A DNA stretch of 63,864 nt, the filler included, from Reclinomonas americana ATCC 50394 (Eukaryota): NCBI GenBank assembly GCA_048213135.1. It is 16 parts of 16 records of this genome, joined end to end, with 100 filler letters (N's around TTAATTAATTAA, not from the genome) between each part and the next. Parts side by side here need not be neighbours in the genome. Positions count along the whole stretch, not along the records: positions 28,347 to 34,014 come from AFZH01019394.1; 15 more parts are not named here. One strand, 5' to 3'. Shown here piece after piece: positions 24,309 to 34,152 of the stretch. Position numbers and translations under genes: made by a program. The first letter of the stretch is position 1, and each line of letters starts with the position of its first letter. Below the pieces are notes generated by a model, which saw only the letters and a list, made by a program, of their open reading frames with translations, was not told where the DNA came from and ran no database searches.

Positions 24309-27300
24309 CGCGTCGACNNNNNNNNNNNNNNNNNNNNNNNNNNNNNNNNNNNNNNNNNNNNTTAATTAATTAANNNNNNNNNNNNNNNNNNNNNNNNNNN
24401 NNNNNNNNNNNNNNNNNCCCTTCTCCCTCCCTTCCCCTTCTCCCTCCCTCCCTCCCTTCCCCCTCCCCCAGTCTCCGAAGGCCCCGCTGCCCTGCGCGAC
24501 TACTTCCCCGCCTACGCCGCCTCGGTGCAGTCGCTGCGCAAGGGCAACTTGATTGTGCGTGTGCCTCCACTGCCTCCACTGCCGCAGGTGGCGCTCGACG
24601 GTGGACTGCCGCAACGCAAGCTGCGCATCGCGTACGAGGTCAAGTCGCCGTCGTGTGTGGTGTTCCGACACAACTACATGTACACTATCATCGGGCCGCT
24701 GCAAACGTGCGGCTGGGTGCCGTGCGTGGAGGGCGCCAGCGAATGCTGCCGATATCGCGTGGAGATCATTACGCATTTGCATCTGACGACTGTGTGTTCG
24801 GGAATCGTCAAGGAGCGAGTTGCGTCGCGAGTGCCGTTCCGTTCAGGATGCACGATTTCCCCCTGCTCACTGCAGGCGGAGCGCAGATGGAGAACCCGGA
24901 GACCGATCTGCGCACCGATGTGTTTGTGGTGGAGACGCCGATTCCCGCGCGTCACTTGTCGCTGGCGATTGGCGACTTTGAGATGTATGTTCCCGAATCG
25001 TTTCCACAGCAGGAGTTGGCGTGCTTGGTCGTGCGTCCGGTGGATTCCGGTGACCCGGCTGAAGCGGAGGCGATTACCGAGGAGGCCATTGCGCGCGCAC
25101 AGAGATTGATTGCCACGTGTTCATACATGCATCGGGTGAGGAGGCTGTGGGGAAGGGCGTTGAATTCTGTTGCTGCATCTCTGTCCTTGCCAGGATTCAT
25201 GTTGACGCCTGTCCTTTTTTTTGACACAAATCATGTCACTAGTTTGCATTCTTCACTCGGGATTTGTCGAACCCTTCCCCCTTCACTGGATCTCTGTCTC
25301 TGTCACTTCTCTGATTACCCTTGTTATCTTCCTCTTCTAATTGCTGTGCTGTGTGTGTGTGTGTGTGTGTGCAGGTGTTTGAGACATATGATCGCGAGTT
25401 CGGCCTCACATTCGGCATCATCTTTGGTGGCCAGTACACGCTTATCTTTGTCGACGACATTCCCGAGGAGACAATGAGCACCTTTAACTTTGCGCTGTGC
25501 AGGTGAGCAATTTGCGCTGTTTCATGTGTCTCGCCCGAGTTCTCATGGTTTTCTCGCCCAGCCGTTCACTGCTCCATCCGTTGGACGTGATTGACCCAGT
25601 GATGCACGCGCGAAAACAGCTCGCGTTTGCCGTGGCCCTCTCGTACGTCAAGGCGCTCGTGCTGGCCGAGGAGTGGTGAGCAGCGAGGGGGAATCTCTTT
25701 GTCTTGTTGGTCGTATATGTGGCTCACTCTCTGTGTTGCTGCAGGGGCGACATGTGGCTGGAGGTTGGCATTGCGGGGTACATGTGCGACTACTTTTACG
25801 ACAGTATGTTTGGACGCAACGAGCTCAAGTACATGCAGCGAATGGTGAGCGGTGTGGGGGAAAGGATTGGGGGAAAGGGAACGTGCATTGAGAGGGTCAG
25901 AGTACGTGGTGGAGGCGTGCCTCATGTTCTCTCGCTTGCCTTTGCATGTCTGTCGCTCTCACTCGCATTCCCTCTTCTGCGTCGTCTCTCTCTATGGTAG
26001 TCTTCACGTCTCGCAGCTTCTCTTGTGTGTGTATCTGTCGCTCTCCCTTGCATTCTTCTTGTGCTTCATCTCTCATTTTCTGCGCTTGTCTCCACTCTCG
26101 AACTGTTTCAGTCTCACTCTCTCTATCTCCATGTCTCGTGGCCTCCTTTCTCTCTGCATGTGTCTCACTCGCTTCGTCTCTCACTCTCTGTTTCAATCTG
26201 TCTCTCTCTTTCGCTCTCTCTCTTTCTCTCTCTCTCTCTCTCACTCTCTCTGTCCTCTCTTTCTCTCTCTCTCCCTCTCTCCCCCGCACGTATTACCATC
26301 TCTTGAATCCTCTTCTGCTATCTCTTTCCGCCCCCAGTTTCTTTCTCTCTTTCTCTCTCTGTCTCTCTCTCTCTGTCCCTCTCTCACATTCATTCTCTTT
26401 CTTTTAACATATCTCTGCCGTCTGTGTCTCTTTGTTTATCAGTTTCTCTCACTCATTCTTTTCTCCTCTCTCACACACACACGTTGTGCCTCTCCCCCCT
26501 CTCACTCTCTGTCTCCTTCTCTCACTCTCCCTCTCTCACATTCATTCTCTCTCGTTGAACGTATCTCTGCCGTCTGTCAGTTTCTCTCACTCATTCTTTT
26601 CTCCTCTTTCTCTCTCTCACATCTCCCACCTACTCCCTTTTCTCTCTCCCCCTTCTCACTTTCTCCCTCCCTCCTCTTCCCCTCGCCCACCACAGCGCCA
26701 CGAATGGGTGTGCGACCACGACATTGGCGTGCAACCGCTGTGCACCACCGACGACTTTGCGCACCCCGCCGAACTGGTCTCGGAGGTGGTGACGCAAAAA
26801 TCCGCCGCCGTGTTCCGGTTGATGGAAAAGGCGACCGATCACCCATTCAAGCGGGTATGTTCTTCGGGGAGAGGCAGAAAGCGAACACCCGCGCAAACAC
26901 ATACAGAGAGAGGAGGGAGGAGAGGAGAGAGAGAGAGAGGGAATGGCTCTGCCTGTTGTGTTGATGGTGGCCTCTTCCCCCACGTGCAGATGATCAGCCA
27001 GACCCTGCAAGCCTGTGCCCAGAACGCCGAGCGAGTAGCACATCGGCGGCTAGGGACCAAGGAGCTACAAAAGGCCCTGTCGCGCATCGATCCCGTCTTC
27101 ACCGAATTCTTTGCGCTGTGGGTGTACGGAAAGGGGTGTCCCGAGATGGAGATCAGCTTCCGCTACGATCACCGTCTCAATGTCATCACATTCGGCATTC
27201 ATGTGTTGAATGCGCACATTTTTGCCGACTCCAAGGCCTCGGTGCGTCCACATGCAGTGACCTCATGTGTGTGTGCGCCACATCGCTCTTACACTTTGGT

Positions 27301-30300
27301 CTCCACCCAGATCCCTCTCAACATTGCTGTGGAGGAAAAGACGCGCCGATACACATGCCTCGTCAACGTCAATCGCAAGTACATTCTGCAACGCTACGAG
27401 TGCGCCTCCAAGCCGAAAAAGTATCTGAAGGCCGGCGAGGACTTTGAGCCGCAACTCGACGAACAGTTGCGATGGGACTGTTGTTTTTCGTGCACCGAAT
27501 GCTGTCCTTTGCTGACTCGTTTTTCCCCAACAGGAACGACTCGAACATTCACTGGATCCGCATCGATCCGGACATGCAGGGATTGATTCGAGCGCGCTTC
27601 TTCCAGCCGCAGTGCATGTGGGTGCGGCAGCTCAAGGAGGATCCATGTATATGGGCGCAGATGGATGTGAGTAAGAGGGGAAGGGGAAGAGGGGAGGGGA
27701 GGGAAGGCAAGGAGAGGAAGAGGGGACGACGAATACTAGAATAGGCAGTATGCACTGGAGTTGATTAGAGAGGATGTGAAAGGGAGAAGGAAAAGGGGAG
27801 CGAGAGCAAGATAAATACATATCATCGTCGGGGGAAGTACAGAACAAGAAGGAGAGCAGTGGCACCCGCTATGGAGGGGTAGTGTGAGAAGGAGTCAAGA
27901 CTGTCAAGAGATAGGTAGAGGGACAGCGTCGCGCAGAATACCGGGGGACGACGAGAAGTAACTGGCATGATGTGTACTGGATCTGGTGCGAGGATGTGAA
28001 ATGGAGAAACAGAGGAGAAGATAGCGAGAGTCACAAGAGACACAAGAAATGAGAAAGATGGAGAATGTGTGTTAGATAGACAGAGAGCGACCATAGATAG
28101 GGAGCGAGAGGAGACATTAAGAAACGTGAGTCGAACGATCGGGAACGAAAGACAACAGCAGTGGTAATGAATGCGCCCTCTCTCTCTCCCTCTATCTCCC
28201 CCGCCTCTCCCTCCCCTCTCTTCCCCCTTCTCTTCCCCCCCTCTCTNNNNNNNNNNNNNNNNNNNNNNNNNNNNNNNNNNNNNNNNNNNNTTAATTAATT
28301 AANNNNNNNNNNNNNNNNNNNNNNNNNNNNNNNNNNNNNNNNNNNNGCACAGATGTTGCTGGAGGACTCGGATGGTGAGAGTGTGGACGGCCGTGGCGGA
28401 GGCGGTCCTCTGCTGTACGGCCAAGGCGGATGTACGGTACAGCAGCTCTTCCCCTTCTCTTCCCCCCTCTCTTCCCCCTTCTCTTCCCCATCTCTCCCCC
28501 TTGTCTTCCCCCTTCCCTTCTCCTATCTCCCTCGCCTCTCTCTTCCCATCTACTTCCCTCCTTCCCCCCTTCTCTTCCCCCCTTCTCTTCCCCTCCCTCC
28601 CCTTTCTTCCCCCTTCCCCTCCTTTCCCTCATACCCCTTCTCCCCCTCCCCGCAGGCCATCGAAGCCCTCCACTCATTCACCTACCGCGGCACCGTCGGC
28701 ACCTACCTGGAGGACTTTATGCTCAACCCACGCTTCTTCCACCGCTGCCGTTCCGGCGCCGCCGACACCCTCGTGCAGTTCACCGGCAAGGGCACGCGCA
28801 ACGGCGTCGGCTTCCTCATTGACCTGTTCAAGCGCCTATTCTTCTCTGCGGAGCACGCCATGGTGGCCCCGAATCGCTTCACCAATGTGCCGACCTACTT
28901 TTTCGAAAAGGTGTGACACATTGCGCGCCTCACTCTCTGTGACAGATCCATGTCGCGCTCACCTCTGTATACTGCAGGGACTGATCGAGGGCATGTCGGC
29001 AATCGGCAGCATGCCCAAGGTAACGGTCGAGACGCGCACCGTCGTCCGCAACTTTTTCCTCGACCTGCTCGACATGAATAACAACGAGTCGAACGAGGTT
29101 TTGTGTGCACGTGCTGCGTGATCTGCAGCCGACCGTCGCCCTCATTTCTCGTGCCACAGTACTCGGACAGTCACTACGTGGCGGAGATCTTCTTGGCCAT
29201 TGGTCGTCTGGCGCCTCTGGAGGCCGCTGAGACCGAAGGTGTGATGGCCAGATGTCGACGCTTCATGGAGGGCGAGCAGTTGCATCCGTCGCACAACTTT
29301 GTCGTGGCGTGTGCCATTTACAAGGTCTGTGTTTTTGGGGTAGTAAGAGATGGAGCTATGTGAGCGCTGACACCCCGCGCAGTGCTGGGCGGCCATGTGC
29401 AACGCGTGCGCCGAGTTTCCCGGCCGAACCGAGTTGATCGAGTCCATGTGGCAGGGCTTTTCGTTGCGCACCATTCCCAGTCGCTGTGTGTCCTCCGGTA
29501 CTCATCCTTTAAGGGATGCAGATCGGCGGCGGCGTTTGACGTGGTGCACGTCTGCATGCTGTGTGTGCTGGCGGTGGCCGGCGCAGATGCACAATTGTCT
29601 GGACAATCGGCTGCTGCGGAGGAACTCATGGGCCGTGTGTTGGTGACGCTGGACGACATTGGTGTGCGCGAGTCTCCGCACTTTCGCAATCGGTTACTGG
29701 CGCCGCTCTCCGATGTGTTGCAGACGGTGCGCGACGTGGCGTAAGAGTTTTTGTGTGGTGTGGTGTCTGTCTCACACCGAGTGACCACAGCAACACATCA
29801 AGGAGGATGCGGATTACTCTCGTGGTCACGGAGTCGATGAGTCGTACTTTTTCGGCAGGCTATCATGGCGGAATCACCTCGCCGCGTCCATTGCACCGCT
29901 AAAGCTGGAGCACGTGGCGGCTGCGCTCGGCGTGTTGCACAATTTGCCTACATCCTCGGTGAAGCGCATGTGGACGTGGTTGAGGTGCGTGTTTTTGGTG
30001 CATCTTTCTTCTCCTATGTGTACATTGCACCGACACACAAATCGCAGGGCACCTGCATCATGCGATCACTACTCGCGGTGGCGCGCACTCCGCTTCTATC
30101 ACGTTGCCTTTGACTTGGACAAACCGGTGCCTCGACAGCCGGTGGAGCGACAGCGTTGGCTTCCCTGTGTCGTTGCCGCCACTGTCACGACGTTGCGTTT
30201 GGCTATGGAGAAGGAGATATCTGTGGGTCGTGGTCCTTACTGCTTCTGCATCGCGCCACAGTCGCTCTCAGTCGGGCGAACCTGCTGTGAAGAGGCAGCG

Positions 30301-33290
30301 CACCGATGCCGCAGGATCCTCAGTCTCCACTGCGGCCACGCCGGCCACGCCCGCTGTGCCGGATGTACCGGCCAGCCTGTCATGGGCAAAATCGAGCCAG
30401 CCAGAGGAGCAGTCGGAAGTCGCGCCAGTTGCGATACTCACTCTTGCCAACGCAAGAAGAAATCAAGTAATCATCCTCTTATATTCCCTGCACAGATGTT
30501 GCTGGAGGACTCGGATGGTGAGAGTGTGGACGGCCGTGGCGGAGGCGGTCCTTCGCGCCAACACAAGGCACGAAAGGCGCCGAAGAAGAGGCCGAGGGAC
30601 TCGCCTTCGGGTTCCTTGTCGGACGATGAAACGCCTCTGCCGCGTGCGTCGAGCTCTGGCAGCCTGTTCTCTGCTGCCGCATACCCCAGACAGGTTTATT
30701 TCGCACTGTGTTGTTGTTGTTGCTTGGCGCATACGTCTCGCAATCCTCACTCTTGTCGTCGCAGTCGTTTGGAGTTGCGCAGACAATCGAGCCGGTCGAA
30801 TACCTCCATATTACCACCAATGTGGCGTCGTTTGTGTACGCGTGTGATCGGAAGGCTGCCGATGCGGCCGCGCTTGTGCTGAGCGAGTTGCGTGTCTGTC
30901 GCCTCGGTGATCGCGGTCGTCGTCGATTCTCACACGTGTTGCAGGTTGCCTGTGTTTGGCACATTTGGCGTGCTGAATGGCGTCTACACGATGAAGTTCC
31001 CCTCTACCGATAGAACCACAGAAGTTGCGAGCGCACCGCTTGTGTGTTTGACGGTGGAGTGTCTCTGTTCGCTGACCCTCTCTTTCTTGTCGGAGCAGGT
31101 GTATCGAACAGCGAAACTATCTGCGCGGCACGGAAAGGGCGCACTCGCTCTGTGGCAGGAGTCGCCAGGCGGTGCCGCGTACCTGTGCACCCATGACGGA
31201 ACCACACATTACGAACATGGCGGTTTCGGCGCCGAGTGTCTCGGATTCGCCAAGACGATTGCACCCAAGTTGCGCGCATTCGCTCCATGCCTACTTTTTT
31301 TGGTGCTCCTGTCCTCTCTCACTCATGCTGTGCACAGAGAGCTGTCGATCAGTCAGGTGCCACACAACGCGCCCTTCCGCATCACGCCGTCGCGTCGCGT
31401 CGAGTTGCAGCTGATGCGCCCCAGCGATGCGTCGGCTGACGCGGACTCGATGTTGGATCCCGAAGAGCTGCTGCAGCCGTTTGCCGTGCATCTGTTTGAG
31501 TCGGTACGTCGCCGTGCATCGTGCTCGACGTGACAGACATGTTGGCTCAAGATAGTGTGCGCCAGGTGGTGGGTGATCGCTTGTGGGAGCAGTCGCTGGA
31601 GGTGTCGACGTGGTACATGCTGAACGGCATGTTGGTGATTCCGCTCGCCGATCCTGCCGTCGGTGAATTGTATCACGGTCGTGTGTATGGATCGCTGACG
31701 AAGAAGAAGGTGGTGGAGTATGGTGATGTGGCGTATTGGCCCACGAGTTGCGTAGGGAGGGGAACCGAAGGGGAAGGGTGGTGAAGGGGAACCGAAGGGG
31801 AAGGGCGGTGAGGGGGAAGGGATGGCGAAGGGGAAGGGAATGGGGAAGGGAGGGGGAAGGGCGGTGAATGGGAAGGGCAGTAAAGGGGATGAGAGGGTAA
31901 GAGAAAGGGAGGGGGAGAAGGAGAGGGAAGTGAAGGTGGAGAGGTGGGCAAAGAGAAATGAAGAAGGAGTGGGAAGTAAAGGTGGAGAGATGGGAGAGAG
32001 AGATTGCGTTGTGACTGTTGAAGCGTGCGAGAGGGAGTGTGAAGCTGCGGAATCTGTACAGGCTGTGCTCGGCTGAGGTCGTGTTGCAAGTCTAGAGATG
32101 CAGAGAGGAGAAGATGAGAGATAGACAGAGAATTGAAGGGGGAATGAGAGAAGGGAGTCGAAAGATGTAATCTGCTGGTTGTGCGTTGATGAGTCTGTGT
32201 CGCGTGTGGAGAGGTAAGACGGAGATGAAGGGGTAAGATGGAAATGAGAAAGAATAGGGAGGACAGGCAGTTTGTGCACCAGCTGTGCTTGAGAACAGCA
32301 CCAAGCAGTTGTTGCGCTGTGCAACTGCGAGTCAACTTGCGAAAGGAGAGTACAGTGCTGAGTTTAGAATGCGCGAGAGATAACTTTTCGCTCTTCCATG
32401 TGTGTAATGGCACGGTTCTTTAGTTGCTTGAGAGAGGAAGCACCTTTTGCCCTTCTGTTATCCTTTGTCCTCCTCATCTCTCACGCCTTTTATTCCCCAC
32501 CCGACCCGCAGGCCGCAACGCCAGTGGTGCCATGACGGGCAACGCTCTCGTGATTGTCTTCTCAGCCACCAACTTTGGCAAGGGCTCGCAACTGGCGCTG
32601 GCCGAGGAGTGCCCGGTGGTTGGTCGTTTCCACCCCTCCGAGGAGACGCGTGCCGACTTGGAGAACTTGTCGCGCATCAGCCTGCGCATGGCGTCGGAGG
32701 AGGATGCGCAGAATGCGGACCTTGGTCGCATGGCGCGCGACGTTCCCATGTTGCTGGCGCCAGTGCGCGGCAAGGGTCACATGCAGGGCATGTGGCGCAT
32801 CGGTCAAGAGGAGACGTACTCGGGCTTCTTCCAATTGTGGGACACGCTGGCGTCGGATGCGTTTGTGTCGGCTGTGAAGACGACGGGTGAGGAGGGGAAG
32901 GGAGAAGGAGAGAGAAGGCTGACATGCTTCCTCACTTTGTGTGTGTTTCCAGGTGGAGTGTTTTCCGCCAGACTCGGCGCCTACATGCAGGGAGCTGTCA
33001 CCATTTTGCGGGTCGAGTGCGCTGAAATCGACTGGCCCAGTCAGCTCGTGAGCAATGCTTACGATGAGCAGCAGCGCACTACCATGATGCCGGGCGAATT
33101 CGGGTACAGCATGGTCGACAGCTCGCTGGTGATTTGCGCTCCCGGTCCGGCGCACATGCAGAGTGTGCCGGTCGTGCTCGCGAGACCAGTGTCAATGATT
33201 GGGCGCTTCTCGAGTGCCGGCTGGCACATGTTGCAGCGAGGTGCCGTCCCGGGCGTGTGGTTCTCCATGGTGTTAGACGCGCAGCAGTAG
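23825..33290 (+). CDS. TAF2: TFIID subunit 2 (TAF2) with C-terminal extension of three cyclophilin-like domains (multi-exon, spans two gaps)
   Basis: HAAVCVQVDL, WVPCVE, IPARHLSLAIGDFE, LIFVDD, LLHPLDVIDP, DMWLEVGIAGY, FGRNELKY, WVYGKGCP, WIRIDPDM, QPQCMWVRQL and NNESNE-YSDSHYVA are all TAF2 motifs. Exons remain spliceable in frame to TAG at 33288-33290. Confidence 0.92.
28347..28445. other. Assembly artefact: mate-pair internal adapter joined to a misplaced copy of 30490-30552
   Basis: 28410-28445 is CTGCTGTACGGCCAAGGCGGATGTACGGTACAGCAG, the reverse complement of the SOLiD-style long-mate-pair internal adapter as I recall it. The preceding 63 nt duplicate a TAF2 segment about 2.1 kb downstream. 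Confidence 0.85.
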
Positions 33291-33346
33291 AGACGGTGAA
33301 TGACGAAAATGGAATTGTGCATAAGCGTGGAATTGCCACTTTCTTT

Positions 33347-33533
33347 TCATTCGTGATACTTGGCCAGCTCCATCAGCATCTTCTCCACCTCGTCGGGGTG
33401 GTACCGTGCGAGAGACTTGATGAGCGCCGTGGCCTCCTCGGGGTTGTCGGGTGAGAGATTGATGAGCAGGGTGATTTCGAGGTCGGTGAGCGGGCCGGCC
33501 TCGCTCATGATAAAGTCGTCGCGCATGAGCTCG
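33347..33533 (-). CDS. RPB4: RNA polymerase II subunit RPB4, terminal exon
   Basis: ELMRDDFIMSEAGPLTDLEITLLINLSPDNPEEATALIKSLARYHPDEVEKMLMELAKYHE* matches the RPB4 HRDC-like motif LxNLxPxxxEEAxALIxSL. Acceptor CAG lies immediately upstream. The Pol III paralogue C17 is less likely. Confidence 0.8.
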
Positions 33534-33858
33534 CTGCACGATATGAGAGAAGGGAGAGTGAGGGGCAGAGGGGGGAGGGACGAAGGGAGAAGGGGAAGGG
33601 AAAGGGAGAAGGGAGAAGGGAGTGAGAGAGAGACAGAGGGAAGAAAGGGAGCAGAGAGATAGAGAAAAGAGAGAAACGACTGAGTCTTGCAAAGGGAACG
33701 ATATCAAGAAGAACGCGATTGACGCCCACGGAGAGCAGAGATACAGGGTGGAGAGAGAGAGAGAGAGAAACGAGAGAAACGACTGAGTCTTGCAAAGGGA
33801 ATGAAATAGAGGATAACGCAATTGACGCCCACGGAGAGAAGTGAGGGGAGATCGAGGG

Positions 33859-34014
<156 letters not shown>

Positions 34015-34152
34015 NNNNNNNNNNNNNNNNNNNNNNNNNNNNNNNNNNNNNNNNNNNNTTAATTAATTAANNNNNNNNNNNNNNNNNNNNNNNNNNNNNN
34101 NNNNNNNNNNNNNNCACCTCTCACACACCCCATCTGACGCCCTCTCGCACAG

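Follow-up and report, generated by a model that had tools for sequence, protein, structure and literature searches.

A predicted TAF2 gene of Reclinomonas americana with a C-terminal tail that probably includes a cyclophilin-like domain

Introduction

The question raised by the locus described here is whether the TAF2 gene of Reclinomonas americana ATCC 50394 stops behind its conserved domains or runs on into an unusual C-terminal tail. The locus lies in a stretch of 63,864 nucleotides, filler included (hereafter the window), in which 16 records of the draft assembly GCA_048213135.1 are joined end to end; the contig of interest, AFZH01019394.1, occupies positions 28347-34014. The original prediction described TAF2 fused to three related tandem domains of the kind known from the prokaryotic protein TM1367. 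According to our analysis, positions 30496-33290 are probably the 3' part of the TAF2 gene, with a tail that would contain at least one cyclophilin-like domain, and we assign this reading a probability of about 0.6.

In animals and fungi TAF2 consists of an M1-aminopeptidase-like domain, HEAT/TPR repeats and a low-complexity tail, with bromodomains in some fungi, and the evolution of the domains of TFIID is described in terms of gains and losses of chromatin readers such as bromodomains and PHD fingers. The Pfam family PF04126 (Cyclophil_like, formerly DUF369) comprises the cyclophilin-like proteins of the TM1367 type, with the PDB structures 1zx8, 2ka0 and 2nnz. TM1367, a protein from structural genomics, has no known function and adopts a cyclophilin-type fold that is described as atypical (PMC2954229). 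A survey of the evolution of TFIID attributes to TAF2, in the part available, an M1-like domain, HEAT-like repeats and bromodomains, the last in fungi only and not in plants as was first supposed, and the word cyclophilin occurs 0 times in that text (PMC6672047). A literature search revealed no publication linking TAF2 or TFIID to a cyclophilin-like or PF04126 domain, in agreement with the claim that the architecture is undescribed.

The TAF2 Gene and Its Continuation into the Tail

The exons assigned to TAF2 itself are the following.

26990-27478, plus strand: first part of the Ig-like (third) domain; PF25316 (TAF2_3rd), E 5.5e-5, 24.0 bits, profile positions 1-75 of 120
27523-27666, plus strand: exon that contains WIRIDPDM and closes the Ig-like domain; PF25316, E 4.4e-4, 21.1 bits, profile positions 95-120 of 120
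28656-28910, plus strand: start of the TPR/HEAT-like C-terminal domain; PF25577 (TPR_TAF2_C), E 7.1e-7, 28.8 bits, profile positions 19-106 of 363
28978-29097, 29160-29324, 29383-29462, 29522-29735, 29791-29984 and 30048-30222, plus strand: six more exons, with in-frame GT-AG introns of 55-67 nt

The upstream gene had been named TAF2, and this identity stands, because three Pfam matches (TAF2_3rd on two exons, then TPR_TAF2_C) are collinear. The PF25577 match, which covers 28638-28913 of the query, passes the Pfam cut-off of 27 bits, and each of the two PF25316 matches taken alone lies under it. The guanine plus cytosine (GC) content of the exon 26990-27478 at the three codon positions (GC1/2/3) is 0.57/0.40/0.70, a GTGAGT donor at 27667 directly follows the WIRIDPDM exon, and the GC3 pattern of the exons within 28978-30222 is consistent with coding. 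Taken singly, these last exons gave no Pfam match; no Pfam match, to the M1-aminopeptidase-like N-terminal domain or any other, was obtained in four upstream frames (24641-25880), PDB searches with single TAF2 exons found no TAF2 chain, and a TAF2-exon query against proteins of 287-2000 residues found no longer protein. Look-alikes of 26990-27478 in the ESM Atlas belong to Peptidase_M1/ERAP1_C clusters at 0.86-0.92. In its sequence, this TAF2 is very divergent. A metagenome scan with the WIRIDPDM exon gave 75 stretches with the pattern, two of which passed tblastn, both on the same 25-residue match; the bacterial-looking one (L106) was set aside as chance.

Behind these exons, the same strand carries the link region and the tail.

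30223-30495, plus strand: candidate 273-nt intron (GTGGGT, pyrimidine tract, CAG) or read-through linker; frame open both ways; GC 0.60
30496-30693, plus strand: exon a, 66 codons for a linker that is acidic at first and then basic and rich in Ser; directly preceded by a pyrimidine tract and a CAG acceptor
30765-30886, 30945-31023 and 31099-31268, plus strand: unit 1, a possible degenerate cyclophilin-like domain of 124 residues; 0.8 bits against the profile hidden Markov model (HMM) introduced below
31338-31503, plus strand: exon d, spacer and proposed first strand of unit 2; GC1/2/3 0.67/0.42/0.82; no alignment to the profile
31566-31746, plus strand: exon e, core of unit 2, ending in VVEYGDVAYWPT; best profile match in the whole window, 16.0 bits
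31747-32511, plus strand: 765-nt intron (GTTGCG to CAG) with G/A-rich low-complexity repeats, splitting the hallmark loop of unit 2
32512-32886, plus strand: exon f, rest of unit 2 (GNALVIVFSAT, later CPVVGRF), acidic spacer and start of unit 3
32953-33290, plus strand: exon g, carrying most of unit 3 and ending in the TAG stop (33288-33290); HMM score -0.0 bits

The gene model was obtained by enumeration of in-frame GT-AG pairs followed by a check of the entire chain. In this splice model, 15 exons from the TPR exon of TAF2 (28656) to the TAG stop form a single open frame of 943 codons. All 14 introns are of the GT-AG type with CAG acceptors, 12 of them being 55-75 nt long and the other two 273 and 765 nt, and the frame remains open when 30223-30495 is left unspliced. 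Several structural claims made earlier were thus reproduced: splicing keeps the frame open into a tail (about 540 residues in our model), the DNA is uninterrupted from 28.4 kb to the stop (the nearest runs of N are those at 28247-28346 and 34015-34114), exon b begins at 30765 behind a CAG acceptor, and the peptides quoted for all three units occur in the spliced translation.

The tail exons are almost certainly coding. Their GC1/GC2/GC3 values of about 0.6/0.4-0.5/0.65-0.8, with GC3 well above GC2, follow the same pattern as the confirmed TAF2 exons, which argues against chance open reading frames (ORFs). The tail and TAF2 are likely to be one gene. A fusion is inferred because the frame is continuous: that of TAF2 is stop-free from the last TAF2 exon until 30882, and it is the frame of an ATG at 30496. 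The pyrimidine tract and CAG acceptor directly before exon a also support continuity with TAF2. Moreover, the unusual donor GTTGCG is present in 5 of the 14 predicted introns, once upstream of the tail (29463) and four times within it (30887, 31024, 31269 and 31747), and its use on both sides speaks for TAF2 and the tail being parts of a single gene in a single genome.

The hexamer GTTGCG is itself frequent in the window, where it occurs 70 times as compared with 41.4 +/- 7.0 in shuffled sequences (none of 100 shuffles reaches 70). Nine plus-strand occurrences lie inside 29463-32316.

The Middle Unit and the TM1367 Family

For comparison with PF04126, prokaryotic genomes were scanned for the back-translated motif G-D-V-x-Y-W-P-P-G, which gave 105 loci. 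At 62 of them, proteins of 105-150 residues with a second family motif were found; all 62 match PF04126 and were used to build a profile. This profile recovers the TM1367 structures 1zx8 and 2ka0, as well as 2nnz, at about E 1e-43. The same motif is also present in a cupin-like bacterial family with C-x-C-P-H-W-G (29 of the 105 loci: L004, L005, L011, L016 and others), and therefore the motif alone cannot place a protein in PF04126.

Before splicing, exon e (ORF 31500-31781) ranks first among the 127 ORF pieces of the contig, with 16.0 bits and E 6e-5, and the ORF holding exons f and g ranks second; the same order is obtained among the 1619 ORF pieces of the window, where exon e has E 7.6e-4. 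The spliced tail, scored as a single sequence, aligns to profile positions 58-119 with 21.7-21.9 bits and E 7e-9, and across the different readings of spliced unit 2 the score is 21.7-23.7 bits, from HMM positions 57/58 to 104/119. This score was reached by 0 of 500 shuffles. In hhalign, unit 2 aligns with the PF04126 profile over 52 columns at a probability of 96.5% (E 9e-10). A control profile made from the 29 cupin-like proteins yields 7.4-7.6 bits on the tail, confined to the motif. Since the match to the PF04126 profile exceeds that of the control family by about 14 bits, it is highly probable that unit 2 is genuinely related to the TM1367 family. The claim of cyclophilin-like units was supported by the profile search for the middle unit, and for units 1 and 3 no significant match was obtained.

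The characteristic loop of PF04126, G-D-V-x-Y-W-P-P-G with the strand A.C.FFG.TP behind it, is kept in unit 2 only. Here G-D-V-A-Y-W-P is present, the next P is replaced by T, and a 9-residue insertion, located where the 765-nt intron splits the loop, precedes G-N-A-L-V-I-V-F-S-A-T. Besides the loop and the strand behind it, the V-x-G-[KR] strand is preserved. Two attempts at a longer alignment were rejected: reading through the 62-nt intron in the frame of exon e gave no better score and no N-terminal extension, and letting exon d run on in its own frame through this intron worsened the score, again with no extension.

Weighing of the Evidence

A number of observations weigh against a TAF2 gene with a cyclophilin-like tail, and they concern either the junction or the fold.

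At the junction, positions 30223-30693 lack a clear codon periodicity, which fits an intron plus a low-complexity linker but also non-coding DNA, and the ATG at 30496 could begin a separate gene. If so, TAF2 would end before 30.5 kb, for example through early polyadenylation or because it is spliced into a frame with the stop TAA 30468-30470, and a second gene starting at 30496 would encode a stand-alone cyclophilin-like protein. Besides the ATG, this explanation can draw on the aperiodic stretch, which could be an untranslated region (UTR) or intergenic DNA, on the stops of one frame at 30288-30290 and 30468-30470, and on the tightness of the locus, where the stop of a convergent Rpb4-family gene lies 56 nt from that of the tail. 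However, the TAF2 frame shared with this ATG is free of stops to 30882, a pyrimidine tract and CAG acceptor stand right before 30496 as they would before an internal exon, and no more than 273 nt would remain to accommodate a terminator, a promoter and a 5' UTR. In our opinion, two separate genes are unlikely.

The junction is also marked by an exact direct repeat of 63 nt.

28347-28409, plus strand: copy 1, from the first base of the contig, inside a TAF2 intron; 100% identical to 30490-30552
30490-30552, plus strand: copy 2, consisting of 6 nt before exon a and the first 57 nt of this exon, spanning the acceptor

The repeat may reflect a genuine small duplication, with its upstream part lost in the gap, or it may be an assembly artefact. 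In the second case, contig 28347-34014 could be a chimera in which the repeat joined TAF2 to an unrelated locus. The positions of the copies, one from the contig's very first base and the other at the beginning of the tail, would be consistent with such an event, as would the draft state of an assembly of short contigs joined by linkers, and the only public contigs placed on the locus cover 33087-33560, short of the junction. On the other hand, a single contig runs without a break through copy 2 and both its flanks; frame, intron size, CAG acceptors and the GTTGCG donor are alike on both sides of the repeat; and two false junctions would be required. A chimera is hence considered very improbable.

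As to the fold, the N-terminal half of PF04126 (invariant P30, W38, E41 and F44; LP...WG[DE]E.YF) remained unaligned in unit 2 in all readings tried: every alignment begins at profile position 57/58 and covers the C-terminal half only. With E values of up to 10 allowed, no unspliced frame matched Pfam's own model of PF04126, a silence that is expected because introns split the domains. The 21.7-23.7 bits obtained with our own profile lie under the Pfam cut-off of 27 bits, and the members of this profile were chosen by motif, so that the motif is over-weighted.

The flanking units add further points of this kind. In hhalign, unit 1 gave P 0.17-0.19 in the wrong register, which is not significant, and unit 3 gave P 0.041 over template positions 54-104 in the expected register. 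In pairwise Smith-Waterman comparisons of the three units, the similarity is not significant: out of 1000 shuffles, 109, 866 and 145 scored as high. For unit 3 (174 residues, including 22 residues from an in-frame 66-nt intron), AlphaFold2 (AF2) run with no alignment gave a mean pLDDT (predicted local distance difference test) of 33.9.

Searches with the last 258 residues of the tail were equally unproductive. A word-indexed search found no relative either in longer proteins (2357 candidates) or in proteins of similar length (706), phmmer gave 0 matches at E 0.001 against 1.84 billion representatives, the ESM Atlas provided no usable match, and the PDB gave one irrelevant match at E 0.22. The organism's own tail protein is evidently absent from the collections searched.

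Taken together, such results could mean that the tail is a fast-evolving extension of TAF2, specific to this lineage and devoid of a cyclophilin-like fold, in which the GDVAYWP stretch and its sequel resemble the family by chance or convergence. Raw frames with no Pfam match, searches with no relative, the alignment of only half a domain, the occurrence of the short motif in the unrelated cupin-like family (29 of 105 loci) and the possibility of a 22-bit match by chance across very many windows would all agree with this. It is nevertheless quite improbable in view of the E value of 7e-9 and the hhalign probability of 96.5%. The match also runs on, in order, across an intron into the next exon, it stands about 14 bits above the control family, and units 1 and 3 match weakly in the expected register.

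The reading of a TAF2 gene whose tail has one recognizable cyclophilin-like domain leaves the status of the flanking units to be considered. Unit 1 has 124 residues after removal of the 75-nt intron 31024-31098, which equals the length of the profile; its 0.8 bits were reached by 13 of 1000 shuffles, and it aligned in the expected register to profile positions 5/6-37 only. The score of unit 3 (-0.0 bits) was reached by 33 of 500 shuffles. In both units the hallmark loop is degenerate (GALALW in unit 1 and GEFGYS in unit 3). The description of the tail as three related, triplicated units was not confirmed by the shuffling tests given above, since the units are not significantly alike. Common intron positions were considered as a sign of triplication and rejected, as positions and phases differ among the units. 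What the sequences offer on relatedness and triplication are hints, not findings. There may be, at about even odds, strongly degenerated copies of the domain of the middle module on either side of it, and the presence of three cyclophilin-like units in the tail could go either way.

Relation to Known Systems and Possible Role

Unit 2 resembles the TM1367/PF04126 domain in its loop, where VVEYGDVAYWP corresponds to the consensus vvevGDvaYWP and is followed by G.AL.I.F..T and VVGR, and in a module size of about 124 residues. It differs in several respects. Known members of the family are single-domain prokaryotic proteins, whereas here the module is split by introns and forms part of a large eukaryotic protein. 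Unit 2 has the 9-residue loop insertion and T for the second P of WPPG; its N-terminal half is unrecognizable, and its score is under the Pfam cut-off. Lateral acquisition of the domain is possible, as 10 of the 11 positions of its loop agree with the consensus of the prokaryotic proteins.

With animal and fungal TAF2, the predicted protein shares the Ig-like domain and TPR_TAF2_C in this order, followed by a charged, Ser-rich tail. The difference is in the accessory module, which would be a cyclophilin-like barrel or barrels and not a bromodomain. The role of the tail would resemble that of the bromodomains in some fungal TAF2 proteins, or of the reader domains found as additions to TAF1, TAF2 and TAF3 in other lineages. 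As far as the accessible part of the survey goes, the bromodomains of fungal TAF2 provide a precedent for C-terminal accessory domains (PMC6672047).

In the proposed arrangement, the TPR/HEAT-like domain would be followed by a flexible linker, acidic and then basic and Ser-rich, and by about 475 residues forming three modules of about 124-140 residues each. Non-catalytic barrels, one recognizable and two probable, would thus be tethered at the TAF2 lobe of TFIID, where they may form a module that binds a peptide or a small ligand; the pocket-lining loop known from the prokaryotic proteins persists in the middle module alone. A binding role rather than an enzymatic one is our somewhat favoured guess because the function of the TM1367 family is unknown; unit 2 would retain the conserved pocket loop for this purpose. 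A more far-reaching idea, which we regard as doubtful, is that a triple cyclophilin-like tail could be an old, overlooked module of TFIID, common to distant protist lineages and lost in animals, fungi and plants. With the pocket loop of the prokaryotic TM1367 family preserved in its middle domain, such a tail could bind the same peptide or metabolite as that family and link this signal to promoter recognition.

Surroundings of the Locus

Two further features lie outside the exons discussed above.

28247-28346, strand not applicable: linker N44-TTAATTAATTAA-N44, inside the TAF2 intron 27667-28655; one of 15 in the window
33347-33550, minus strand: convergent neighbouring gene, C-terminus of an Rpb4-family protein, outside the feature; PF03874, E 4.4e-7, 30.6 bits

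The contigs of the window are short and come from a draft eukaryotic assembly, and the window is rich in GC and in introns; the contig with the TAF2 tail, 28347-34014, is flanked by the linkers 28247-28346 and 34015-34114. The 15 linkers of 100 nt (N44-TTAATTAATTAA-N44) have stops in all six frames, and since all of them are identical, the gap sizes are nominal and the order of contigs depends on the assembler. Assembly gaps coincide with low-complexity arrays. C/T-rich arrays are found in TAF2 introns at 26.2-26.7 and 28.2-28.6 kb, and G/A-rich and GA-dinucleotide arrays occupy 31759-31909, in the 765-nt intron, and 33557-34012, downstream of the gene.

With 56 nt between the stops of the Rpb4-family gene and the TAF2 tail, the 3' UTRs of the two genes must be very short or overlapping. 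Public runs of 2012 (three small runs from one sample, of uncertain type, "DNA?") gave a contig of 314-476 nt that matches 33087-33560 only. It reaches from the end of the tail ORF across the 56-nt spacer into the end of the Rpb4-family gene and stops short of the junction between TAF2 and the tail.

Conclusions

The gain from this locus is limited, since a cyclophilin-like character can be demonstrated here for no more than one of the three units. If a cyclophilin-like module of TAF2 occurs in more than one protist lineage, the TM1367 family, whose function is unknown, would gain its first cellular context, and the basal transcription machinery would have one more accessory domain, a hitherto unstudied one.

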